Source of the DNA: Alphaproteobacteria bacterium
GTDB lineage: Bacteria; Pseudomonadota; Alphaproteobacteria; UBA828
Reading direction: 5' to 3'
DNA length: 64,000 nucleotides
Assembly: GCA_050173345.1 (NCBI GenBank)
Contig: JBFXKW010000002.1
Coordinates: 79,938-143,937 of the forward strand
This document shows, one piece after another, positions 1,838 through 44,005 of this stretch. The notes under the pieces were generated by a model. That model saw only the letters and a program-made list of their open reading frames with translations. It was not told the origin of the DNA and searched no databases. Positions within the stretch are counted from its first letter, which is position 1; each line of letters opens with the position of its first letter. The position numbers and the translations under genes were made by a program.

Positions 1838-1961
1838 GGCCGCCTCCGTGTTGGGCTACGAAACGTAAACCGCGTTTTTGATTGCCGTGACGGTAGGGTT
1901 CGTTGCCGCCGAGAGTCAACGAGGACGGAGCCGTTCCGAGCGCGCCGTCCTGCGGTGGGCG

Positions 1962-2678
1962 TCAGGCGCCGAGATAGGTGCTCAGAATCTGCGGGTTGGT
2001 CTTGAGATCGTCGGCGCCGCCCTGCCACACGAACTCGCCATGGTCGAGCAGGTAGATATAGTCGGCGAAGTTCATGACGCGGCTGACATTCTCCTCGACG
2101 ATCAGGATCGTGCGGCCTTCCTCCTTGAGCGCGCGGATCACCTCATAGATCTGGTCGACGGCGATCGGCGCGAGGCCGAGCGAGGGCTCGTCGATCATCA
2201 GGAGCCTGCCGCCGCTCATCAGCCCGCGGCCGATCGCGAGCATGCGCCGCTCGCCGCCCGAGAGCGTGCTCGCTACCTGGCGTTTGCGCTCGTCGAGGCG
2301 GGGGAAAATCTGGAAGACCGTGCGCAGCCGCTCGCCGGCCTTGGCGTAGGCGGCGGGCAGGTAGGCGCCCATCATCAGATTGTCGGCGACGCTCATCTCC
2401 GGGAAGACCAGGTCGCCCTGCGGGATGTGCACCAGGCCGAGCTCGACGATCTTCTCAGGCCGCACGCCGCCGATCGGCCGCCCGCCGGCGCGGATGCTGC
2501 CGCCCATGACCGGGATCAGGCCGGAAATGCAGCGCAGGAGCGTGGTCTTGCCGTGCCCGTTCGGGCCGATGATGGCGATCGCCGCACCCTCCGCGACGCC
2601 GAACGAAACCTCGCGGACCACCGGCTGGCCGTGATAGCCGGCGGTCACGTTCTCGAGTTCCAGGAAGACGTCACTCAT
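1962..2678 (-). CDS. ABC transporter ATP-binding protein, LivF/UrtE-like branched-chain/amide family
   Basis: Walker A 'GPNGHGKTT', signature 'LSGGERRMLAIGR', Walker B 'LLMIDEPSLGL'. The true start is most likely the internal ATG at 2678 (MSDVFLELENV...). The upstream 55 codons of the track ORF are Arg/Ser-rich junk. Confidence 0.8.
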   Translation of the reverse strand: MSDVFLELENVTAGYHGQPVVREVSFGVAEGAAIAIIGPNGHGKTTLLRCISGLIPVMGGSIRAGGRPIGGVRPEKIVELGLVHIPQGDLVFPEMSVADNLMMGAYLPAAYAKAGERLRTVFQIFPRLDERKRQVASTLSGGERRMLAIGRGLMSGGRLLMIDEPSLGLAPIAVDQIYEVIRALKEEGRTILIVEENVSRVMNFADYIYLLDHGEFVWQGGADDLKTNPQILSTYLGA

Positions 2679-2766
2679 CAGAGGCTCACCATCATCGTAT
2701 CGGCTCATTATGACAGGGCTCTTACCGAAATCCATCGGCGCCACCGTGCACCGAACGCCGCCCGCA

Positions 2767-3654
2767 TCACTTGCCCTTGCGCGGGTTGCGCTTCTTGTAT
2801 TCGTCGCAAATCTGCTTGAGCGTGACGAAGCGCACGCCGTCATGCCGGCGCATATGGTCGATCAGCCGCTCGAGCATCATCAGCATCTGCGGATGCCCCG
2901 ATGCGTCCGGGTGGACGCACGCATTGTAGATGCCCCAGTCATAGTGGCGATAGAGCCAGTCGAACTGGTCCTGCCACATCTCGCCGAGATGGCGCGGGCT
3001 GACCCAGCCATGGCTGTTCGGGAACTTCTTGACGAACATCACGGGCGGCGCGTCGTCCAGATACCAGCTGCACGGGATCTCGACGAGGTCGGTCTCGGGC
3101 CCCGGCTTCCACGGCTTCATCCAGACCTCGGCCGGCTTCGAATAGTCGATCTTGGTCCAGCTATCGTCGCGGCGCAGATAGTAGGGCGTGTGGTCGTCGC
3201 CCATCAGGCTGTGGTCGTATTCGATGCCCTTCTCGATCAGCAGGTCGATGGTGTTCTTGCTGAGCTCCCACCAGGGCGCGGTGTAGCCCTTGGGGTCCTT
3301 GCCGCTGAGCTCTCTAGCGAGCGCGAAGGTCTTGTCGAGCACCGCCGCCTCCTGCTCCCTGGTCATCGCCAGCGGGTTCTCGTGCGAATAGCCGTGCAGA
3401 CCGATCTCGTGGCCCGCCTGCACCACCAGCTCGGCCTGCTTCGGGAAGCTCTCGATCGAATGGCCGGTGATGTCCCAGGTGCCCTTGATCCCGTACTTGT
3501 CGTAGAGGTCGAGCAGGCGCGGCACGCCGAGCATGGCGGCATGCACGCCGCGCGAGATATCGCACGGCGAATCCTCGCCGCCGAACGAGCCCAGCCAGAG
3601 CGACACCGCATCGAAATGGGTGTTGAAGCAAACCAGAATTTCCTTGTCCGCCAT
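2767..3654 (-). CDS. Polysaccharide deacetylase (NodB-homology/PuuE-like) family hydrolase
   Basis: The track ORF is trimmed to the ATG at 3654 (MADKEILVCFNTHFD...). Motifs of the divalent-metal deacetylase fold are present (HxxxH-like 'GHEIGLHGYSHE'). The upstream 45 codons lack coding character. Confidence 0.7.
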   Translation of the reverse strand: MADKEILVCFNTHFDAVSLWLGSFGGEDSPCDISRGVHAAMLGVPRLLDLYDKYGIKGTWDITGHSIESFPKQAELVVQAGHEIGLHGYSHENPLAMTREQEAAVLDKTFALARELSGKDPKGYTAPWWELSKNTIDLLIEKGIEYDHSLMGDDHTPYYLRRDDSWTKIDYSKPAEVWMKPWKPGPETDLVEIPCSWYLDDAPPVMFVKKFPNSHGWVSPRHLGEMWQDQFDWLYRHYDWGIYNACVHPDASGHPQMLMMLERLIDHMRRHDGVRFVTLKQICDEYKKRNPRKGK

Positions 3655-3815
3655 GCCTGTTCCCCCTGCGTGAACCGAGCCGCCGTCGCGGCGGCCAATA
3701 TCAGCACGGCCGGGCGCAAGAAGGTAGGCCGTGATTCGCCGCTCAAATCGCTTCGGTTCGGGCGGTTCACGCTCTACGATGCCGGCCAAACAATCCGATG
3801 CATGAGGGAGGCACC

Positions 3816-4289
3816 ATGAGCTCGAAGACGACGGCGACCAAGGAGAACGCGCTCTCGAAGCAGGAGATCGACGGGCGGCTGTCGAAGACCGCCCTCGCCC
3901 GGCTCGCGAGCTACCGCGCGGACGGCATGATCCACCTCACGCCGATCTGGTTCGACTGGAACGGCAAGGTGTTCCGCCTGACGCTCGGCGCCGGCCGCAT
4001 CCACCTGAAGAACCTCGCGCGCGATCCGCGCGTCTCGATCCTGATCGACCAGGACCCGCGCCTCGAAAAAGGCATCGGCGCAGGCGCCTGGGCGATCATG
4101 TGCCGCGGCACCGCCACGCTCTCCCAGGACGCCAAGCTGATCCGCGAGGTGACGCACGCGGTGCTGGTCAAGGCGCTCGGCTCGGCCGAGGCCGACCAGT
4201 ATACCGAGCCGGTGATGGCGGAAGGCCGCACCATCGTTACCATCACGCCGCAGGACTGGCTGACCTGGGACTACAACAAGGCCGACTGA
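3816..4289 (+). CDS. Pyridoxamine 5'-phosphate oxidase-like FMN-binding family protein
   Basis: Starts at MSSKTTATKE. 'MIHLTPIWFDWNGKVFRLT' split-barrel PNPOx-like pattern. It is followed by a GC-rich hairpin at ~4313-4340. Confidence 0.65.
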   Translation: MSSKTTATKENALSKQEIDGRLSKTALARLASYRADGMIHLTPIWFDWNGKVFRLTLGAGRIHLKNLARDPRVSILIDQDPRLEKGIGAGAWAIMCRGTATLSQDAKLIREVTHAVLVKALGSAEADQYTEPVMAEGRTIVTITPQDWLTWDYNKAD

Positions 4290-4519
4290 CGCATCGGCAT
4301 CTCGGGCACCACAGCCGTGCCGCGCCTCGGGCGGCACGGCGTCCCATGAGATCGTTGTGTCAACGGGCGCAGCAGAACGATCCGCGAAGAAAAGCGCAGC
4401 AGTCTCCGCACGGGCTACCGCATCGCCACGGAACTCACCGCCGTCCCTACCGTTGTCATGGCGGAAGGGGCGGTCGCGCCTTCGTCCTTGGACGATTCCA
4501 GCAAAGGAGTTCCGACAGC

Positions 4520-4906
4520 ATGCAACGCACATGGTCAGGCAATCTCGCCGCGCTATCCGCGGCGGCGGCGATCGCCCTCATGCCGCTGGCCATCCCGGCC
4601 GCCGCGCAGGAAGCCGCGCCGGCTGATCCGCCAGCGGCCATGCAGCCCGATGAGAACGACCTGCGCGCCTTCGCCAACGCCTCGATCGGCGTCGAGGCGC
4701 TGTACGACATATGGGAGCCGAGAATTGCGAGGGCCGGCGATGAGCGGGAGGCCGAGCAGATGCGCCAGCAGGCGGCCGCCGAAATGGAAGCGTTCGTCGA
4801 GGAGCAGGGCCTGACTCCCGAGGAATACAACAACATCTACAGGCTGGCGATGGCGGACCCTGATCTGGCGGTTCGGATCGAGACGCTGCGACGGCAGATA
4901 CAGTAG
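4520..4906 (+). CDS. DUF4168-like secreted protein
   Basis: ATG at 4520 is preceded by AAAGGAG. There is an N-terminal signal peptide (AAAAIALMPLAIPAAAQ). The acidic helical C-terminal domain (EAFVEEQGLTPEEYNNIYRLAMADPDLAVRIETLRRQIQ) is typical of DUF4168. Confidence 0.55.
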   Translation: MQRTWSGNLAALSAAAAIALMPLAIPAAAQEAAPADPPAAMQPDENDLRAFANASIGVEALYDIWEPRIARAGDEREAEQMRQQAAAEMEAFVEEQGLTPEEYNNIYRLAMADPDLAVRIETLRRQIQ

Positions 4907-34280: not shown

Positions 34281-34403
34281 TATCGTTTCACCAGAACGAT
34301 CATCTACGCTGGACGCCGCCGCAATGTCTCTCTCCGGACAGGACAAGGAGGTAGAAGGCGGGCCGTAGACGATAGTGATGATCACTACGCTTTCGCTGTG
34401 GTC

Positions 34404-34829
34404 CTATCTTGAAGCCGAAGTTCCGTTCGGGGCGATCAAAGAGAGCTTGGGGAAATAGGTCCGATAACGCGCCGCATCCCTCGTCAATAGCGAATATCCG
34501 GCTACAGCCGCGTGGGCGCCTATGAAGAAGTCCGGAAGCGGCAAACTCTTTGTTCCGCTTCGCTGCCGATAGGCGAGGAACGCCTTGCCAGCGAGAAAGG
34601 CCGCTTCGTACGGGATGGACTCACGATCGAACATGGTTTTCGGGAGCGCGGCATCGAGATCTTCGATGCGTGAATATCGAATCGACACCTCAGCATAGAT
34701 GACCGGATTGATGACGAGGCGGTACCGATCGGCGGCGCGCTTGAGGGCCTCCGCGGACCACGCAAGCCAACGCGCGTCTTCCGTCATGACGTCAAGAAGA
34801 ACATTAGCGTCAACCAGGACGGCTGTCAT
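34404..34829 (-). CDS. vapC: PIN-domain ribonuclease toxin VapC
   Basis: 'MTAVLVDANVLLDV' with the first acidic PIN residue. 141 aa. Its start abuts the stop of the upstream antitoxin gene. Confidence 0.8.
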   Translation of the reverse strand: MTAVLVDANVLLDVMTEDARWLAWSAEALKRAADRYRLVINPVIYAEVSIRYSRIEDLDAALPKTMFDRESIPYEAAFLAGKAFLAYRQRSGTKSLPLPDFFIGAHAAVAGYSLLTRDAARYRTYFPKLSLIAPNGTSASR

Positions 34830-35060
34830 TCAGTCATCGCGGGTCAGCGCCATTATGGCATCGGTGCTCATCGACACGTCGCCGCGGCCCCGCAGATGGG
34901 CAACGAAACGAGCGCCGCGACCGCCCTTGCCGGCCTTGGCACGAACGATACGCACAACCTTGCCGTCGAACTCGAACTCCACCTCGGTATGGGGCAACAG
35001 GCCCGCCCGTTCACGGATATCGACTGGGATAGTCACCTGCCCCTTCGACGTAATGCGCAT
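34830..35060 (-). CDS. vapB: AbrB/SpoVT-type antitoxin VapB
   Basis: 76 aa. 'ITSKGQVTIPVDIRERAGL' swapped-hairpin AbrB motif. The stop is adjacent to the vapC start. Confidence 0.7.
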   Translation of the reverse strand: MRITSKGQVTIPVDIRERAGLLPHTEVEFEFDGKVVRIVRAKAGKGGRGARFVAHLRGRGDVSMSTDAIMALTRDD

Positions 35061-35227: not shown

Positions 35228-35317
35228 TGGCGGAGGGGGCGGGATTCGAACCCGCGATACGTGTTACCGTATGCACGCTTTCCAAGCGTGTGCCTTAAGC
35301 CACTCGGCCACCCCTCC
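35228..35317 (-). tRNA. tRNA-Ser (anticodon GGA), 90 nt with a long variable arm
   Basis: The reverse complement reads GGAGGGGTGGCCGAGTGGCTTAAGGCACACGCTTGGAAAGCGTG…GGTTCGAATCCCGCCCCCTCCGCCA. It has a 7-bp acceptor stem, D-arm GCCGAGTGG…AAGGC, anticodon loop TTGGAAA, T-arm GGTTCGAATCC and an encoded CCA. Confidence 0.85.
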
Positions 35318-35420
35318 TGCCGTGCCGCAGGGCCGGCAGGGCGGACAATAGCAAGAATGGGGAAGCCTGCAACACGCGCCGGCCGCCGGCAGCGGGCCGG
35401 TTTGCTTCCATGATTCGATA

Positions 35421-35440
35421 AGGCAATTGTATACTTGACT
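35421..35440. repeat. Left terminal inverted repeat of the IS1595-family element
   Basis: aggcaattgtatacttgact. Its exact reverse complement is at 37645-37664. Confidence 0.75.
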
Positions 35441-35493
35441 ACACAACATGCCCGAACCATCTGAAACCCGACAGGCCGGCGAAGAGGTTACGA

Positions 35494-36129
35494 TTACTCC
35501 GAGGATGACGGACGCGGGGATTGCTGCCTTGCAGCTTTTTTCCGGGTCGGCTTCTGACGTTTTGGTTGGTGCGGTTTATAGCGCCATGAGGCATGCAGAA
35601 GGTGGGCGAATGTCCTCACGGTATCTGCATGAGCCCGCGCCGAGAAGTCGCCGTGATTTATCAAAAGATACGCCATGATCTTGCGCAGATCGGCGGTCAT
35701 ATCATTTAGAAGGGTAGGCGATACTGGAATTTCTTTGCGGTGTTTGTCCGTGAGGGCGACCAAAAAATTGGAGCTAATTCGTTCGTCAATCTTGTCGGGG
35801 ACTGGGTCCGCTCCGTAATGCAAGATCTGATTGCGCACATCGTTGATGTGCCCGAGCTGTGTTAGCACCGCATCGGTTTCCTTCCTGCGCTCTTGGTCGG
35901 TCTCGGATATCAGCATCAAGCGACGCAGCAAGCCATTTGCGGTATCCACGCGAGCGCCCGAGAGAAGAGCGCGCGCGACAGGGAGGGTAAGCTTCGCCAC
36001 GCTGGAAACTGCTATGAATAGAGCGCCTTCGACGGATGAGAAGGCATCTACAAATTCACCGAGGGATTCATGATACCTTCGAGTTTGCTCTTGTTCGCCG
36101 AGCATGCCGTGAGGCCCATAGTTAGCCAT
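35494..36129 (-). CDS. Hypothetical protein, passenger gene inside the IS element
   Basis: A 254-aa track ORF. The probable start is the internal ATG at 36129 (MANYGPHGMLGEQEQ…). GC is low and there are no recognisable motifs. The basic C-terminal tail (KPHQPKRQKPTRKKAARQQ) reads into the IR. Confidence 0.4.
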   Translation of the reverse strand: MANYGPHGMLGEQEQTRRYHESLGEFVDAFSSVEGALFIAVSSVAKLTLPVARALLSGARVDTANGLLRRLMLISETDQERRKETDAVLTQLGHINDVRNQILHYGADPVPDKIDERISSNFLVALTDKHRKEIPVSPTLLNDMTADLRKIMAYLLINHGDFSARAHADTVRTFAHLLHASWRYKPHQPKRQKPTRKKAARQQSPRPSSSE

Positions 36130-36672
36130 GGCTAAGCCCTCCGATCCGACCAAAGACCCGAAGTTCCGCGAGACGGTGGAGCGGATGCTACGCGCGCCAC
36201 CGAAACCGCATAAACCTACATCAAGCAAGATGTCTGACAGAAAGAAAAAGCCGCCCAAGAAGGAGGGCGGCTAGGAGGAAAGATGGACGAGCGAGAGTTG
36301 CGCCTTGAATGTTTGCGTCTTGCCGCTGTAGGTGGCGGCGATTATGCGAAGGTGCTCGACGTGGCGGGTCGGTACGCCAATTTCGTTGAAGGGTCAGGCG
36401 TTCCGAACGGTTTGGAGACAGTCGCGGTACAAGCCGATGAGGTAGCGCCTGTCAACTAGTTCTTCCCCGCCATCTTTGGCGATGAGGGGGTTGGCGGTTT
36501 TCGCTTCGGCTTGCATGATTGTTTGCATCAGACGCCATGCAACCTGTTCGGGCGAATTCTTGCCGAGATGTACAATGGGTCTGTCAGCCATTAGGGTTCT
36601 CCCTAGCCATCGGGTTGCTTGCTATAAAGGCGGCTCAGGATCATCCGCCATTCTTGGCGTGTGAGTCGAGGC

Positions 36673-37599
36673 TTAGACGTTCGGCCCGAGATCAGCCCGC
36701 CGATAGGTGAGGCGCTTCCCTTCGATGCCCTTGAGCGCCTTGACGGCGCGCTCGCTGTCATCGACGCCAAGGGCAGCGCGTTCGCTGTAGCGGAAATCGA
36801 ACTCCGCCAGATAGCGGTGAAGATGCTGCTCACCGCAGTGCTGGTAGACGCCCTTCATGCCGCGCTTGAAGATGCTGAAATAGCCTTCGATGGTGTTGGT
36901 ATGGATCGGGCCGCGCCCGTACTCGCCGGCCATGTGGCGCACGACGCCATGCTCGACGAACTCGCGCCCGACCTTCGTGTAGTGGCGCGCCTCATCGGTC
37001 ATCAACCGCGCTTCGCGGGCCACGTTCTCGCGCACGATAGGGGCGACGGTGGAGGTTCTCAGGTCATTCACGACCATCGAGCGCGCGCGGCCGGTCTTGC
37101 GGTCAACGAGCGACAGCACCTTGTGCTTGTGCTCGTAACCATGTCGCACAGGCTTGCCCTTCTTGCGGCCTATGAAGGTCTCGTCCGCCTCCACCGTGCC
37201 GCCATCGCTGCCGAAGGGCGACAGGTCATCAGAGCGCATGCCCTCGCGGATGCGATGCGCCATGAACCAGGCTGTCTTGTAGGTCACGCCGAGCATGCGG
37301 TGGAGCTGATGGGCTGACATGCCCTTCTTGCTCGACACCATCAAATGGGTTGCCAGAAGCCACTTATGGAGCGGCACATGGGAACGCTCGTACAGCGTGC
37401 CGACGCGCACGGTGAACTTCTTGCGGCACTCGCGGCAGTGATACCAGCCCGCGCCCATCGCGCCTTCGGCCGGCAGGGCACGCACGGTCTCAAGCTGGCC
37501 GCAGAACGGGCAGAACGGACCATCCGGCCAGCGCACGCTTTCGAGGTATTCGCGGGCCGTGGTTTCATCGGTGAAGATCGGGGCGGTGAGTTTCGGCAT
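36673..37599 (-). CDS. IS1595-family transposase (ISXO2-like DDE transposase with N-terminal zinc ribbon)
   Basis: N-terminal 'CPFCG…CRECRKKF' zinc ribbon, then the ISXO2-like DDE_Tnp_IS1595 core (…HTNTIEGYFSIFKRGMKGVYQHCGEQHLHRYLAEFDFRYSER…). Confidence 0.85.
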   Translation of the reverse strand: MPKLTAPIFTDETTAREYLESVRWPDGPFCPFCGQLETVRALPAEGAMGAGWYHCRECRKKFTVRVGTLYERSHVPLHKWLLATHLMVSSKKGMSAHQLHRMLGVTYKTAWFMAHRIREGMRSDDLSPFGSDGGTVEADETFIGRKKGKPVRHGYEHKHKVLSLVDRKTGRARSMVVNDLRTSTVAPIVRENVAREARLMTDEARHYTKVGREFVEHGVVRHMAGEYGRGPIHTNTIEGYFSIFKRGMKGVYQHCGEQHLHRYLAEFDFRYSERAALGVDDSERAVKALKGIEGKRLTYRRADLGPNV

Positions 37600-37644
37600 G
37601 GCTGATCACTCCTTGCCGCCCAAGGTAAGCGAAGATGGCTGTTC

Positions 37645-37664
37645 AGTCAAGTATACAATTGCCT
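37645..37664. repeat. Right terminal inverted repeat of the IS1595-family element
   Basis: agtcaagtatacaattgcct, the reverse complement of the left IR. It is followed by the duplicated TTCGATAA. Confidence 0.75.
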
Positions 37665-37815
37665 TCGATAAGCTCACGCTTCGACAGGCTCAGCATGAGG
37701 GCGTTGATTGCGGCCGCCGTCATTTCTGCCGAGGCAAGTGCGCGCGAACGAGCCACAATGCCGCGCGGTGCCGCCTCCGCATCGTCCATCGCGCCATTCC
37801 GCCGCCGGAGCGATC

Positions 37816-38388
37816 ATGATCCGTTGGCTTCTCGACAGGCTCGCCTTGCTCTGCCTCCTCGTCACGCTCGGCGTGGTCGGCAACGAGCTCTGGCAGGCCG
37901 CCACGGCGGGGCTGGGCTATCGGGTGATTCCGCTCTGGGAGCTGTGGGGTGCGATCCATGAAGAGAGCCTCGACGGGGTGCAGGTCCAGGTGGAGGGAAC
38001 CTCGCCCTGGCTGTGGCGGACCATCGTGCTGCCCATCCTGCTGGGCCCGGCCTGGGCCGTGCCGCTCGGCCTCGCCCTGCTGTTCCGCATCCTCGCCGCC
38101 TTCGCGCCACGCCGCGGCCGCGACGATGGCCGCGCGGTGCGGAAGCCGCGCGTCCCGACATGGCAGCGACGCGCGCCCGCACCCAAGGCGCCCGACACCG
38201 CGTCCGATATCGAGGCCCTGGCCGAGCCCTGGCCCCGGTCGCCTTGGCGGCGAAGCGCGGCGCAGCCCACGCCGCCCAAGCCCGCCAAGTCCACCACGCC
38301 GATCGACCTGCCGAAGGACATGAAGCCGCCATTGCGCAAAGCGGCGCCTTCCGGCCGCCGCCGGCCGACCGTGACGCGCCATCCTTGA
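37816..38388 (+). CDS. Hypothetical membrane protein (three TM segments, proline/basic C-terminus)
   Basis: ATG at 37816 (MIRWLLDRLALLCLLVTLGVVG…). The gene sits between the IS and the nitrile hydratase cluster and shows a GC third-position bias. Confidence 0.4.
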   Translation: MIRWLLDRLALLCLLVTLGVVGNELWQAATAGLGYRVIPLWELWGAIHEESLDGVQVQVEGTSPWLWRTIVLPILLGPAWAVPLGLALLFRILAAFAPRRGRDDGRAVRKPRVPTWQRRAPAPKAPDTASDIEALAEPWPRSPWRRSAAQPTPPKPAKSTTPIDLPKDMKPPLRKAAPSGRRRPTVTRHP

Positions 38389-38454: not shown

Positions 38455-39057
38455 ATGGCAAGCCATCGGCACAGCGAGCCGCCATCCGATCCCGCGCTCA
38501 GGGTCAAGGCGCTCGAATCGCTGCTCATCGAAAAGAAGCTGATCGACGCGGCCGCGATGGACGCGCTGATCGATACCTTCGAACAGAAGGTCGGCCCACG
38601 CAACGGCGCCAAGGTGGTGGCGCGCGCCTGGGCCGACCCGGCCTACAAGCAGCGCCTGCTCGCGGATGCGACCGCCGCGATCGCCGAGCTCGGCTATTCC
38701 GGCATGCAGGGCGAGGACATGGTGGTGGTCGAGAACACGCCCAAGGTCCACAACCTGCTCGTCTGCACGCTGTGCTCCTGCTATCCGTGGCCCGTGCTCG
38801 GCCTGCCGCCGGTCTGGTACAAGGCGGCGCCCTACCGCTCGCGCGCCGTGATCGAGCCGCGCGCGGTGCTCGAGGAGTTCGGCGTCAAGCTCGCCGACGA
38901 CGTCGAGATCCGCATCTGGGATTCGACCGCGGAGCTCCGCTACATGGTGCTGCCCGAGCGGCCCGCCGGCACCGAGTCTTTGAGCGAGGACAAGCTCGCC
39001 GCGCTGGTCACCCGCGACGCCATGATCGGCGTCGCCAAGGTCGCGCCGCCGCGCTGA
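38455..39057 (+). CDS. nthA: Nitrile hydratase alpha subunit, cobalt type
   Basis: Metal-binding claw '[10 protein letters not shown]'. Threonine and tyrosine in V-C-T-L-C-S-C-Y mark the Co-type; Fe-type enzymes have VCSLCSCT. 200 aa. Confidence 0.9.
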
Positions 39058-39070
39058 ACGGGAGGGCGAG

Positions 39071-39382
39071 ATGAACGGCATCCACGATCTCGGCGGCATG
39101 CACGGCCACGGGCCGGTCAACGCGGAAGCCAACGAGCCGGTCTTCCACGGCGATTGGGAGAAGCGCGCCTTCGCGCTGATGATCTCCTGCTTCGCCGGCG
39201 GGCAATACAATGTGGACGAGTTCCGCCACGCCATCGAGCGGATGGACCCGGCCGAATATCTGCGTTCGAGCTATTACGAGCACTGGCTGCACGCGGTCGA
39301 GACGCTGCTGGTCGAGAAGGGCGTCATCAAGCAGAGCGAGCTCGCCGCCAAATGGGCGACCGTCGCCAAGGGAGGCGCCTGA
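39071..39382 (+). CDS. Nitrile hydratase beta subunit, N-terminal half (separate ORF)
   Basis: 'MNGIHDLGGMHGHGPVNAEANEPVFHGDWEKRAFAL…' is the canonical beta-subunit N-terminus. The ORF stops at TGA 39380-39382, after the sequence AAGGGAGGCGCC. Confidence 0.8.
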   Translation: MNGIHDLGGMHGHGPVNAEANEPVFHGDWEKRAFALMISCFAGGQYNVDEFRHAIERMDPAEYLRSSYYEHWLHAVETLLVEKGVIKQSELAAKWATVAKGGA

Positions 39383-39732
39383 TGCCCCTGCTCAGCAAGG
39401 ACATGGTGCCGACGCTCGTCGCCAATGGCGGCTCGACGCGCGTCAACGCCTCGGTCGCGCCCAAGTTCAAGAAGGGCGACAAGGTGCTGGCGCGCAACCT
39501 CAACCCGCCGGGCCATATCCGCCTGCCGCGCTACGCGCGAGGCAAGCGGGGCGAGGTGGTGGTCGATCACGGCGTCTTCGTGTTCCCGGATACCAACGCG
39601 CACGGCAAGGGCGAAAAGGCGCAGCACGTCTATACCGTGCGCTTCGCCGCGCGCGACGTGTTCGGCCCGGCGGCGGGCGCCAAGGACGCCGTCTACGCCG
39701 ACCTGTGGGACGACTATCTCGACCCGGCCTGA
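39382..39732 (+). CDS. Nitrile hydratase beta subunit, C-terminal half (separate, translationally coupled ORF)
   Basis: ATG overlaps the preceding TGA (TGATG), with AAGGGAGG 6 nt upstream. 'APKFKKGDKVLARNL…GEVVVDHGVFVFPDTNAHGKGEKAQHVYTVRFAARDVFGP' matches the beta C-terminal barrel. Confidence 0.8.
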   Translation: MPLLSKDMVPTLVANGGSTRVNASVAPKFKKGDKVLARNLNPPGHIRLPRYARGKRGEVVVDHGVFVFPDTNAHGKGEKAQHVYTVRFAARDVFGPAAGAKDAVYADLWDDYLDPA

Positions 39733-39748
39733 GCGGGAGCCCGCCCCC

Positions 39749-40156
39749 GTGGTCTCGCCCACCGCCCTCGATGAGACGCCCGGCCTGCCGCGCGACCGCG
39801 ACGGCCCGCTGTTCGCCGAGCCGTGGCAGGCGCAGGCCTTCGCGCTCACCGTGAAGCTGCACGAGGCTGGGCACTTCACCTGGCCCGAATGGGTGGCGTA
39901 TCTGAGCCGCGAGGTCGCGGCTGGCGCGCCGGCGGGTGCATCAGGCGCCGAAACCGTCTATTATCTGCAGTGGCTGGCCGCACTCGAGAAGCTGGCCTCC
40001 GACAAGGGATTGACCTCGCCCGCCGCGCTCGCCGCCCGCAAGGCCGAATGGCTGGCGGCCCACGGCGCGACGGCGTTCGGCGAGCCGGTTACGCTCGAAG
40101 CGGCGCACAGGCACGACCATGAGCATGACGGCAGGAAGCAAGGGGAACAAACATGA
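39749..40156 (+). CDS. Nitrile hydratase accessory/activator protein (beta-homolog, P14K-like)
   Basis: GTG at 39749. 'FAEPWQAQAFALTVKLHEAGHFTWPEWVAYL' is the beta-like motif typical of NHase metallochaperone/activator proteins. ~135 aa with a His-rich tail. Confidence 0.65.
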   Translation: MVSPTALDETPGLPRDRDGPLFAEPWQAQAFALTVKLHEAGHFTWPEWVAYLSREVAAGAPAGASGAETVYYLQWLAALEKLASDKGLTSPAALAARKAEWLAAHGATAFGEPVTLEAAHRHDHEHDGRKQGEQT

Positions 40157-40341
40157 CGGTGAAGAAGGCAGCGCGTGAGGGGCACGTTTCTGCGTGGGCG
40201 GCGTTCGTGCGGGCTTGGCCGGTGGCGATCGCCGTGATGCTGGGCGTCGGCCTCATCTATGGCGCGGGCTTCGCCGGCTCCGAGGTGCTGCACGATGCGG
40301 CGCATGACGCGCGCCACTCCTTCACCTTCCCCTGCCACTGA
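40153..40341 (+). CDS. cbtB: Cobalt transporter subunit CbtB
   Basis: 62 aa, one TM segment, then 'YGAGFAGSEVLHDAAHDARHSFTFPCH' His-rich tail characteristic of CbtB. It overlaps the preceding stop (ATGA). Confidence 0.75.
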   Translation: MTVKKAAREGHVSAWAAFVRAWPVAIAVMLGVGLIYGAGFAGSEVLHDAAHDARHSFTFPCH

Positions 40342-40359: not shown

Positions 40360-41208
40360 ATGATCGGACGTCCCGCCCCGAGCGGCAACGGCCACGACGC
40401 CGCCCTGGCTCGCCGCCCCGCCGCGATCGGCCTGGACCGGCTGCGCCAGATCGTTCTGGTCGCGCTGATCGCCGGCGTGCTCGCCGGCCTCGCGCTCACC
40501 GGCCTGCAGCGCATCGCCGTGGTGCCCATGATCCTCGAGGCCGAAACCTACGAGACCGCCGCCGGCGGCCATGAGCACGGCCATGACGATGCCGCGGCCG
40601 CCACAGGCGCGGACGCCCACCAGCATGACAGCGCCCAGGCGCACGAGCACGAGTCCGCCGCGGCGGCGCCAACGGACGCCGCCGACGAGGGCGACGCCAA
40701 TCGCTTCTGGCTGACGCTCGCCGCCAACCTGGTCTCCGCGGCCGGCTTCGGGCTGCTGCTCGCCGCCGGCATGAGCCTGCTCGCCGCCACCGGAAGGCGC
40801 ATCGACTGGCGCAAGGGGCTGCTCTGGGGCCTCGCCGGCTTCGGTGCCTTCCAGCTCGCGCCCGCGCTCGGCCTGCCGCCGGAACTCCCGGGCTCCGCCG
40901 CGGCCGAGCTCGGCGCGCGCCAGGGCTGGTGGCTGCTCACCGTGCTCCTGACCGGCATCGGCCTCGCCTGGGCCGCCTTCGCGCCGCGCTATTGGCTGCG
41001 GCCGCTCGCGGTGGTGCCGATCATCATCCCGCATCTGATCGGCGCGCCGCAGCCCGAGCACCATGGCGGCCTCGCGCCCGAATCGCTGGCGACCGGCTTC
41101 ATCTACGCCTCGCTGATCACCAATTTCGTGTTCTGGATCGGCCTCGGCGCCCTCGCCGGCTACGCCCACGCCTGGTTCGAGCGGCGCGGCGCGGCGGCGC
41201 GGGCCTGA
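40360..41208 (+). CDS. cbtA: Cobalt transporter subunit CbtA
   Basis: 282 aa, five TM segments. His-rich loops (HEHGHDD…HQHD…HEHE) and the conserved C-terminal CbtA core. Confidence 0.8.
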   Translation: MIGRPAPSGNGHDAALARRPAAIGLDRLRQIVLVALIAGVLAGLALTGLQRIAVVPMILEAETYETAAGGHEHGHDDAAAATGADAHQHDSAQAHEHESAAAAPTDAADEGDANRFWLTLAANLVSAAGFGLLLAAGMSLLAATGRRIDWRKGLLWGLAGFGAFQLAPALGLPPELPGSAAAELGARQGWWLLTVLLTGIGLAWAAFAPRYWLRPLAVVPIIIPHLIGAPQPEHHGGLAPESLATGFIYASLITNFVFWIGLGALAGYAHAWFERRGAAARA

Positions 41209-41284: not shown

Positions 41285-41620
41285 ATGAGCACTGCCCTAT
41301 CGCGCCGCCGGTTTCTGCTCGGCACGGTGTTCGCCAGCCTCGGCGGCGGGCTCGCGCTGTCGGCCGCCGGCAAGGCGCATGCGCTGTCGAGCGAGCCGCT
41401 GCCGCACAATCTGCGCTCGCTCTATCTCGCAGGCTGCCAGCGCGCCGGCGAGCACGAAGCCTTGATCGACCAGGTGCTCGCCCAGCTTCGCGACGACGGC
41501 GTCAATGTCGACGACCCCGCGATACGCCAGGCCGCGCTCGACACCACCTATTGCAGCATCTGCGGCTGCCCCTTGAGCCAGCACGCGAGAAAAAGCCCGC
41601 CCGTCTCCTCCGGCACCTGA
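41285..41620 (+). CDS. Small TAT-signal protein with a C-terminal CSICGC cysteine motif, function unknown
   Basis: 'MSTALSRRRFLLGTVFASLGGGLALSAAGKAHA' twin-arginine leader. The mature ~75-aa domain ends with YCSICGCPLSQH. It is the last gene of the nthA-cbtA string. Confidence 0.45.
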   Translation: MSTALSRRRFLLGTVFASLGGGLALSAAGKAHALSSEPLPHNLRSLYLAGCQRAGEHEALIDQVLAQLRDDGVNVDDPAIRQAALDTTYCSICGCPLSQHARKSPPVSSGT

Positions 41621-41632
41621 GGCCGGCGCGGC

Positions 41633-43438
<1,806 letters not shown>

Positions 43439-43510
43439 TCAGGAACGATCTGTGCGCCAGCCATGAGTATGAAACCGGTTGCTTCTGCTATATCGCGAGG
43501 CCGCCGGCAC

Positions 43511-43735
43511 TCAAAGCTGCTCGAATTCCTCCGTGGAGAGCCCCGCTTGTCGGAGAATGCTTCGGAGCGTGCCCGTAGAGACCTCTCGATGTGCCGGAAC
43601 GATCGCCGTGCGAACGACCGCACCTTCTGTCTTTACAAATTTCACATGGCTACCTTTTCGACTGGCCTCGGCAAAGCCAGCCGCCATGAGCTTCCGCCTG
43701 ACCTCGCGATAGGCAAGTGGTCTAAGAGGTGCCAA
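43511..43735 (-). CDS. hicA: HicA-family mRNA interferase toxin
   Basis: 74 aa. 'KGSHVKF' motif and dsRBD-like fold signature of HicA. It overlaps the hicB stop by 14 nt. Confidence 0.7.
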   Translation of the reverse strand: MAPLRPLAYREVRRKLMAAGFAEASRKGSHVKFVKTEGAVVRTAIVPAHREVSTGTLRSILRQAGLSTEEFEQL

Positions 43736-43928
43736 CCTCCACCTCGATCGGACGAATCGCGGGCAGGTCTGTTGCGCAAGGCGGCTCGAAGTGCAAGGTC
43801 AACGCTTCCTTCAGATTGTCCAGTGCCTCGGCCTCGGTCTCTCCTTGGCTTGCGACATCAACCTCCAGGCATTGCGCGACATACCATTCGCCCTCATGGG
43901 TGAGGCTTGCCGAAAATGTCCGTGTCAT
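43722..43928 (-). CDS. hicB: HicB-family antitoxin
   Basis: Start at the internal ATG (MTRTFSASLTHEGEWYVAQCLEVDVASQGETEAEALDNLKEAL), the partial RNase-H-like fold of HicB. ~68 aa. Confidence 0.65.
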   Translation of the reverse strand: MTRTFSASLTHEGEWYVAQCLEVDVASQGETEAEALDNLKEALTLHFEPPCATDLPAIRPIEVEVGTS

Positions 43929-44005
43929 TTCATCGATCCTCCGATCGTGGAGACCCGCCGGAGAGAAGGTCATGATCGCAATGTAGGGGATGGCGAGGCG
44001 AGCTT

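Follow-up and report, generated by a model that had tools for sequence, protein, structure and literature searches.

Three-subunit nitrile hydratases (NHases) are already known from ToyJKL, Streptomyces canus and Microvirga flocculans. In ToyJKL of Streptomyces rimosus, the function of the beta subunit is distributed over two polypeptides, and ToyJ alone has been reported to be sufficient for maturation and activity, according to Nelp et al. (2014), as cited in PMC7329996. The enzyme of Streptomyces canus CGMCC 13662, AnhD-AnhE-AnhA, is an active NHase of the Co type that has been described as AnhD2E2A2, with AnhD and AnhE (10.4 and 11.4 kDa) representing the N-terminal and C-terminal parts of beta (PMC7329996). 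A proteobacterial Co-type NHase, that of M. flocculans, is also reported as a three-subunit enzyme in a review (PMC11573777). Ensifer adhaerens PnhA, considered as a further three-subunit candidate, was rejected, its beta gene being 657 bp long. The searchable literature yielded no proteobacterial example of the arrangement alpha, beta-N, beta-C and activator.

Here, we describe a locus with this arrangement in an alphaproteobacterial, MAG-derived sequence, of which a stretch of 64,000 nucleotides (the window) was analysed. Its genes lie on the plus strand in the order alpha, beta-N, beta-C, accessory protein, cbtB and cbtA. The alpha gene, nthA (38455-39057; 200 aa, 21.9 kDa), matches PF02979 (E=2e-91) and scores 311.5 bits on TIGR01323 in profile searches, above the cut-off of 249.85. 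NHases of the Co type are marked by Thr and Tyr within the metal-binding claw motif. Both residues occur in the VCTLCSCY sequence of NthA (residues 103-110, codons at 38761-38784), whose claw residues are Cys104, Cys107, Ser108 and Cys109. The Co-type site recognized in the first-pass annotation is thus present, and motif and TIGR01323 match together identify the alpha subunit of a Co-type nitrile hydratase (EC 4.2.1.84). The gene downstream of the beta region (39749-40156; 135 aa, GTG start) encodes a nitrile hydratase accessory protein, with a TIGR03889 score of 88.1 bits (cut-off 46) that identifies it as the dedicated downstream activator of a Co-type NHase. It also matches PF21006 and is therefore a homologue (paralogue) of beta-N, in agreement with the initial suggestion of a beta-homologous activator; its C-terminal tail is rich in His and Asp (HRHDHEHD).

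The ATG of cbtB overlaps the stop codon of the accessory gene as ATGA. Together, cbtB (40153-40341; PF09489, E=8e-18; TIGR02459, 64.7 versus 64.4 bits) and cbtA (40360-41208; 282 aa; PF09490, E=4e-50; TIGR02458, 228 versus 182.9 bits) encode the small and large subunits of a proposed cobalt transporter. Directly 5' of alpha, a gene call (37816-38388, plus strand) specifies a basic, predicted membrane protein of 190 aa that has no Pfam match and shares 37% identity (E=4e-18) with an equally placed 190-aa ORF in the syntenic relative L088; its membership in the operon is uncertain. A promoter scan detected no promoter 5' of alpha, and in an Rfam scan of the whole window a tRNA was the sole hit and the operon showed no riboswitch. 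A terminator-like hairpin (41620-41634, plus strand) occupies the gap that separates the last gene of the plus-strand run from the convergent lepA; it is a consensus match whose occurrence is within chance expectation (one found, 1.5 expected). An amidase or aldoxime dehydratase gene is absent within 10 kb of the locus, making the pathway context thinner than for its plasmid-borne relatives.

The beta subunit is encoded by two genes of 103 and 116 codons, as the first reading of the sequence had proposed. Beta-N (39071-39382, plus strand; 11.5 kDa) comprises the N-terminal arm and the helical domain (PF21006, E=7e-43), and beta-C (39382-39732, plus strand; 12.6 kDa) the linker helix and the SH3-like barrel (PF02211, E=5e-33). 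Beta-N spans positions 1-98 of PF21006 and positions 1-98 of the 226 positions of TIGR03888, and beta-C covers positions 117-226 of the latter model. No single polypeptide reaches the TIGR03888 cut-off of 152.2 bits, the stop codon dividing the match into halves that score 140.9 and 124.6 bits. The proposed alignment to a full-length beta subunit, that of P. putida (3QXE_B), showed that no linker segment is missing: beta-N matches residues 1-96 (61% identity) and residues 2-116 of beta-C match residues 104-219 (52% identity), so that the halves follow the chain end to end (residues 1 to ~102 and 104-219), and the combined length of 103 + 116 = 219 aa equals that of 3QXE_B. The cut lies within the linker that joins the two domains and leaves each half with one active-site arginine. 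Catalytic and second-shell residues are found in both, with R52, E56, Y68, Y69 and W72 present in beta-N and H45 and R47 of beta-C as the counterparts of P. putida beta H147 and R149; the two halves thus provide both domains and both active-site arginines of an NHase beta subunit. When modelled alone with AF2, beta-N (pLDDT 82) matches NHase beta chains as well as the beta subunit of thiocyanate hydrolase (SCNase), and beta-C (pLDDT 86) is co-extensive with the SCNase alpha chain 2DD4_A. Both halves are under purifying selection, with dN/dS values relative to L088 of 0.20 for beta-N and 0.26 for beta-C, compared with 0.19 for alpha.

The two genes meet in a candidate coupling junction (39368-39384, plus strand). 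As first described, the TGA of beta-N (39380-39382) shares one base with the ATG of beta-C (39382-39384), forming TGATG, and a Shine-Dalgarno (SD) sequence, AAGGGAGG, at 39368-39375 is followed by a 6-nt gap to this ATG. Among the 28 loci in which both halves are present (from 30 split loci among 53 sampled), 25 display a T[GA]ATG junction, with TGA or TAA as the stop codon, and an SD-like motif accompanies it in 24 of these 25. An identical junction is present in L088 and L089, although their flanks have diverged, and across the aligned loci the junction sequences vary except for the SD and T[GA]ATG. Purely from its geometry, we infer that the two halves may be translationally coupled by reinitiation. 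A hairpin enforcing such coupling was considered and dropped, as RNA folding revealed no significant structure at the junction (z = -0.65). Since the start codon is not sequestered, independent SD-driven initiation of beta-C, instead of reinitiation, is equally possible.

The first reading had placed split-beta enzymes outside the norm for proteobacterial NHases, but in the wider comparison the split is far more frequent than this implied. It occurs at the same alignment column, in the linker, in 30 of the 53 alpha-first genome loci sampled, and the best 120 beta-N homologue clusters all consist of proteins of 99-104 aa with 64-86% identity that contain PF21006 only; the best beta-C homologues have 115-120 aa and contain PF02211 only. 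Cultured Agrobacterium, Rhizobium, Aminobacter, Rhodopseudomonas, Azospirillum and Paracraurococcus are represented in the sample. Cultured carriers include A. tumefaciens AF1/95 (pAt), A. vitis VAR06-30, Aminobacter sp. MSH1 (pUSP2), Paracraurococcus lichenis LOR1-02 and Rhodopseudomonas sp. AAP120, and the window locus is an ordinary member of a large proteobacterial split-beta clade. A search of a 50%-identity representative library returned 3066 relatives (E<=0.001), many of which are contig-end fragments, so that their lengths are unusable for estimating the split fraction. In a bootstrapped neighbour-joining tree of alpha plus beta, the backbone has supports of 4-40% and only local nodes are reliable, such that fission and fusion events are not countable on it; at one local node, a split clade is sister to a fused clade with 90% support. 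Within this tree, split loci branch from among fused enzymes of Proteobacteria, suggesting that the split may have originated independently of the actinobacterial examples, ToyJKL and S. canus.

The stop codon at 39380 could in principle be an artefact, a frameshift introduced into an ordinary one-piece beta gene by sequencing or assembly, given that the sequence is MAG-derived, that the operon has a GC content of 71%, a setting in which indel errors do happen, and that a 1-nt insertion or a 2-nt deletion would restore one reading frame. However, the identical junction is found in at least seven independent assemblies (three NCBI MAGs and four Logan read-set assemblies), and it recurs in dozens of species and on four complete plasmids of cultured strains, with stop, ATG and SD conserved as a unit. 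An error is thus effectively refuted, its probability being negligible, and the original preference for a genuine split over a nonsense error is upheld by these assemblies and species and by the purifying selection on both halves. A recently frameshifted pseudogene, with a dead enzyme and an untranslated downstream half, is what annotation pipelines tend to make of such loci: the halves fall individually below the TIGR03888 cut-off, NCBI labels them "hypothetical protein" and "SH3-like domain-containing protein", and the gene tables of three plasmids list no CDS for the beta region (PLSDB gene tables leave out pseudogenes). Such decay is at odds with dN/dS values in the halves that are near that of alpha, with intact beta-C ORFs of 113-119 aa kept in three classes of Proteobacteria with identities of 45-65% and with the retention of the beta-C start codon, the SD and the active-site residues, and we consider it extremely improbable.

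Another way to obtain a functional enzyme would be programmed -1 (or +2) frameshifting or stop read-through, which would generate a full-length beta subunit and reduce the two ORFs to a mere appearance. The SD-like element right before the stop resembles the prfB recoding site, and the beta-C frame in the window is open far upstream, from 39058. Yet, the shift needed is -1 or +2, as opposed to the +1 of prfB, and the junction contains neither a conserved slippery heptamer nor a stimulatory RNA structure. Moreover, the beta-C frame opens merely 10-33 nt 5' of the ATG in several relatives (L009, L037 and L077), and the TAA stop of many loci excludes a UGA-specific mechanism. Recoding thus appears very unlikely. 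We assign a similarly low probability to the enzyme being one of the specialised relatives with three subunits, thiocyanate hydrolase or a nucleoside NHase of the toyocamycin type, a link at which the first-pass annotation had hinted. This link holds for the shared three-polypeptide architecture, and two SCNase subunits do correspond to the halves of NHase beta, at the fold level only (beta-N versus 2DD4_B, TMq 0.65; beta-C versus 2DD4_A/G, TMq 0.70-0.74). Beyond architecture and fold it fails: identity to the SCNase chains is 21-27%, compared with 52-61% to P. putida beta, and alpha scores 188.8 bits on TIGR03887 (thiocyanate hydrolase gamma; cut-off 291.45), against 311.5 bits on the NHase alpha equivalog. 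Toyocamycin-type and sulfur-oxidation genes are absent within 10 kb, and in the plasmid relatives an amidase and a transporter adjoin the NHase locus, as in classical nitrile operons. The locus is predicted to encode a P. putida-type cobalt NHase, not a thiocyanate hydrolase.

We therefore consider it highly probable that this P. putida-type cobalt NHase produces its beta subunit in two pieces, divided at the linker that connects the helical domain to the SH3-like barrel. The following scheme for its synthesis, assembly stoichiometry, catalytic activity and maturation route is conditional and derived from sequence. Alpha, beta-N, beta-C, the accessory protein, CbtB and CbtA would be encoded on one mRNA. 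A ribosome ending beta-N at the UGA would restart at the overlapping AUG (UGAUG), aided by the SD within the last beta-N codons, and the halves would thus be produced side by side in about equal amounts. They would then combine with alpha to form (alpha/beta-N/beta-C)2, the equivalent of the normal alpha2beta2 complex, with R52, Y68 and W72 from beta-N and H45 and R47 from beta-C contributing to the active site. CbtAB would bring in cobalt, and the accessory protein, which is paralogous to beta-N and has a His-rich tail, may load it into alpha via subunit swapping. It is tempting to extend this model to a large proteobacterial three-polypeptide clade whose origin is separate from those of ToyJKL, SCNase and the S. 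canus enzyme and in which free beta-N exchanges with the activator on alpha during cobalt loading and the junction has been repeatedly gained and lost by single-base changes, a scenario that we regard as speculative and rather doubtful. The fused beta gene of locus L067 carries the sequence GAGGAGA..ATG, which would be read as the scar of a lost junction under this extended scenario.

The proteobacterial split-beta clade is mis-annotated in RefSeq. Because the halves lie under the cut-off of the nthB model, they are labelled "hypothetical" or "SH3-like domain-containing protein" or go unlisted, and gene-count surveys of nitrile metabolism consequently under-count NHases. Strains affected by such hidden enzymes include Agrobacterium and Aminobacter sp. 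MSH1, the latter having been obtained from dichlobenil-treated soil. While reviews from 2024 and 2026 treat three-subunit NHases as rare, our data show that they are common in Proteobacteria. For enzymologists and for users of NHases as industrial or bioremediation catalysts, the split marks a place in the beta linker where nature has shown that a P. putida-type enzyme can be cut, which could help to engineer subunits and to study the swapping of the activator onto alpha.

The closest solved relative of the enzyme is the Co-type NHase of P. putida NRRL-18668 (PDB 3QXE, accessory protein P14K). The two systems share a total beta length of 219 aa and the order alpha-beta-accessory, and P. putida R52, E56, W72, H147 and R149 are conserved in the window locus. 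However, P. putida beta is one chain, whereas a stop/start interrupts the window locus where residue ~103 would fall, within the linker between the domains. The thiocyanate hydrolase of Thiobacillus thioparus (2DD4) shows the same domain-level cut, beta-N being the counterpart of SCNase beta and beta-C that of SCNase alpha, but SCNase beta bears an N-terminal extension of ~45 residues, and the substrate of SCNase differs from that of NHase. In its architecture, the window locus belongs with the split-beta three-subunit NHases of the ToyJKL and AnhDEA kind. ToyJKL, likened to it by architecture alone, comes from an actinobacterium, where it forms part of a nucleoside antibiotic cluster; the window locus has a dedicated accessory protein and a cobalt transporter. 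The S. canus genes are arranged in the order beta-N, beta-C, alpha, whereas the window locus places alpha first. Moreover, a separate activator gene is absent from ToyJKL and S. canus, where AnhD doubles as the swapping chaperone of the S. canus enzyme, whereas the window locus has a separate one at 39749-40156. Finally, the alpha gene of M. flocculans is reported to separate the two beta genes (review PMC11573777), whereas the beta genes of the window locus lie next to each other and share one base.

The operon in the window, encoded on the forward strand, opens with the gene for the alpha subunit (38455-39057; 200 aa), whose product passes the alpha equivalog model TIGR01323 (311.5 bits; cut-off 249.85) and carries the VCTLCSCY motif at residues 103-110, in agreement with its first-pass annotation as part of a Co-type nitrile hydratase. 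It is followed by two separate ORFs for the halves of the beta subunit, beta-N (39071-39382; 103 aa; PF21006, NHase_beta_N) and beta-C (39382-39732; 116 aa; PF02211, NHase_beta_C), which cover positions 1-98 and 117-226, respectively, of the 226-position beta model TIGR03888. As read from the sequence beforehand, these ORFs overlap in a TGATG, with the beta-N stop TGA (39380-39382) and the beta-C ATG (39382-39384) sharing an A, and the Shine-Dalgarno motif AAGGGAGG is located at 39368-39375, 6 bases ahead of the beta-C ATG. The next gene (39749-40156; 135 aa; GTG start) had been described as a beta-homologous activator, and its product indeed passes TIGR03889 while also matching the beta-N domain; its C-terminal tail reads HRHDHEHD. 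All features noted beforehand are thus confirmed. The ORF list continues with cbtB (40153-40341) and cbtA (40360-41208), both on the forward strand.

The split had been proposed to be real rather than a nonsense error of sequencing, and several lines of evidence bear this out. The exact proteins, with an unchanged junction, are present in three NCBI MAG assemblies ('Alphaproteobacteria bacterium') and four independent Logan read-set assemblies. A search of beta-N against 5.8 billion protein clusters returned 1099 matches, the best 120 of which (64-86% identity) are all 99-104 aa long and comprise the N-domain only; reciprocally, the top matches of beta-C are 115-120 aa long and limited to the C-domain. 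A genome scan with one genome per species yielded 593 confirmed loci. Among the best 80 of these, beta-N ends at about codon 103 in 30 of the 53 alpha-first loci (window included), making the arrangement less exceptional than the first-pass annotation implied, whereas the loci with beta before alpha are all fused, except for two apparently damaged genes. T[GA]ATG, with TGA or TAA as the stop, occurs in 25 of the 28 split loci holding both halves, preceded in 24 of these 25 by a purine-rich, Shine-Dalgarno-like motif 4-12 nt upstream. Carriers span the Alpha-, Beta- and Gammaproteobacteria and include the cultured Paracraurococcus lichenis, Rhodopseudomonas sp. AAP120, Azospirillum sp. and Aquicoccus sp.; matching junctions are also found on finished plasmids of Agrobacterium tumefaciens AF1/95, A. 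vitis VAR06-30, Rhizobium sp. NIBRBAC000502774 and Aminobacter sp. MSH1. Relative to the syntenic locus L088, which is likewise flanked by lepA and pheT and shows 78% identity in beta-N, the 19-base junction AAGGGAGGCGCCTGATGCC is constant in the midst of diverged flanks, with dN/dS values of 0.20 for beta-N, 0.26 for beta-C, 0.19 for alpha and 0.24 for the accessory gene. Together, the assemblies, homologues, hosts, junction conservation and dN/dS values argue that beta-N and beta-C are both functional and evolve under purifying selection.

Between them, the two halves constitute a complete beta subunit. Their summed length of 219 aa equals that of the single-chain beta subunit in the closest solved structure, the P. 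putida Co-type enzyme (3QXE chain B), whose residues 1-96 are aligned by beta-N (alignment envelope to about 102) and residues 104-219 by residues 2-116 of beta-C. Alignment of both halves to this full-length chain and to split and fused relatives, as the first-pass annotation had suggested, revealed no missing beta segment: the linker is equally long in split and fused proteins, and the initiator methionine of beta-C occupies the column directly ahead of the conserved Pro-x-Leu-Thr with which the C-terminal half begins. Beta-N contains R52, E56, Y68, Y69 and W72, and beta-C contains H45 and R47, corresponding to P. putida H147 and R149. In characterised enzymes, these residues line the active site, whose predicted lining is consequently divided between both proteins. 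In AlphaFold models of the individual halves, both of which are confident, beta-N (mean pLDDT 82) forms helices at residues 28-99 after a disordered stretch of about 20 residues, as expected for an arm wrapping alpha, and beta-C (mean pLDDT 86) a short helix followed by a beta-barrel. Foldseek matches both models to nitrile hydratase beta chains. Thiocyanate hydrolase gives further matches, of beta-N to its beta chain (TMq 0.65) and of beta-C to its entire alpha chain (TMq 0.70-0.74, TMt ~0.70). The models thus put the cut at the domain boundary used by thiocyanate hydrolase, but identity to these chains is only 21-27%.

A thiocyanate hydrolase proper can be dismissed, given that the alpha subunit fails the corresponding gamma model (188.8 versus 291.45 bits). 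Among neighbouring gene calls, no toyocamycin or sulfur metabolism genes were found within 10 kb of the operon. The same range contains no called amidase gene; in plasmid-borne relatives, an amidase and a transporter are encoded directly upstream. Alternatively, recoding at the junction might join both frames into a single beta subunit. However, this is unlikely, since the ribosome would have to shift by -1 or +2, no slippery site is conserved among relatives, and the beta-C frame opens just 10-33 nt ahead of its ATG in several of them. Moreover, many loci have TAA in place of TGA, and the junction RNA lacks significant structure (z = -0.65).

For two separately translated halves, the genes are most likely transcribed as a polycistronic message, in which termination-reinitiation at the overlapping UGAUG, or initiation driven by the Shine-Dalgarno motif, would provide beta-N and beta-C in roughly equal amounts. 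Together with alpha, they would then assemble into an (alpha/beta-N/beta-C)2 complex equivalent to alpha2beta2. CbtAB would import cobalt, and the accessory protein, a beta-N paralogue, would aid its insertion into alpha. Maturation would follow the self-subunit-swapping route of Co-type enzymes (PMC7329996), yielding a presumptive hydratase.

In a bootstrapped neighbour-joining tree of alpha plus beta, whose backbone is weak, all split loci fall within the alpha-first proteobacterial clade, interleaved with fused loci. One node with 90% support unites a split clade (loci L024, L025 and L052) with a fused clade (L066, L067 and relatives through L042). Where the beta linker of fused L066 and L067 corresponds to the split position (near 4300), both retain GAGGAGA, and L067 also an in-frame ATG, which looks like a re-fusion scar and may serve as a lead. 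Toggling between both states would be mutationally cheap, because one inserted base in TGATG fuses the frames. Two MAG loci (L007, 2651-4668; L018, 2652-4668) encode a full-length beta subunit (226 aa) immediately ahead of the alpha, beta-N, beta-C and accessory genes, so that fused and split beta genes flank alpha in an order reminiscent of that reported for Microvirga flocculans. Beta-C-like paralogues (31-40% identity) lie ~0.5-1.5 kb downstream of the split genes in L063 (5120-6072) and L077 (5122-6111), the latter with a beta-N-like copy as well. A Halobacteriales archaeon (L071, 4001-4190) has an in-frame TAG at beta codon 63, unrelated to the linker split, which could reflect a pseudogene, an assembly error or another cause.

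Directly upstream of the operon, the region 35231-37700 has the appearance of a hot spot for insertions. It comprises a tRNA gene of 87 nt (35231-35317, minus strand) and, after it, a stretch of lower GC content (58% versus 68% for the window) containing an IS1595-family transposase gene (36673-37599, minus strand). In L088, a phage-type integrase gene lies on the corresponding side. Directly ahead of alpha, an ORF (37816-38388, plus strand) encodes a very basic predicted membrane protein (190 aa; pI 11.3) with a Pro/Arg-rich tail, which matches no Pfam family and is kept in position in L088 (37% identity). The ORF after cbtA (41285-41620, plus strand; 111 aa) specifies a twin-arginine-type signal (SRRRFLLG) and a CSICGC motif, has no Pfam match and lacks a counterpart in the syntenic loci L088 and L089. 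The region lies between two toxin-antitoxin pairs, a PIN/MazE-like one upstream (~34400-35060) and HicA/DUF7387 downstream of lepA (~43510-43930), with both sets of coordinates derived from the gene calls of locus L090.

Database annotation handles split-beta loci badly. NCBI labels the halves in the window 'hypothetical protein' and 'SH3-like domain-containing protein', RefSeq applies the latter name to both halves in Aminobacter sp. MSH1 (L093; pUSP2, 1875-4595), and the gene tables of the A. tumefaciens, A. vitis and Rhizobium plasmids (L086, L092, L094) lack CDS for them. In all four of these plasmid loci, the split takes the form T[GA]ATG. The alpha cysteines of MSH1 (105, 108 and 110) have the same numbering as those quoted for the characterised enzyme of Aminobacter sp. 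CGMCC 1.17253 (PMC13243292), suggesting that a family member may already have been expressed and assayed with its split unremarked.

Reviews from 2024 and 2026 still term the three-subunit arrangement unusual or novel (PMC11573777, PMC13243292), and the full-text literature searched contained no description of an alpha/beta-N/beta-C/activator form in Proteobacteria. The large clade of the window enzyme thus appears undescribed in searchable literature, yet plain in sequence databases. The three-subunit kind itself is already known, and the window adds a further member. Documented examples are AnhD-AnhE-AnhA of Streptomyces canus and ToyJKL of S. rimosus (PMC7329996). The S. canus enzyme lacks an activator, and its genes run beta-N, beta-C, alpha, whereas in the window alpha comes first and an activator is present. 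In the three-subunit plasmid enzyme of M. flocculans, the two beta genes reportedly lie on either side of alpha (PMC11573777), whereas those in the window are adjacent and follow it.
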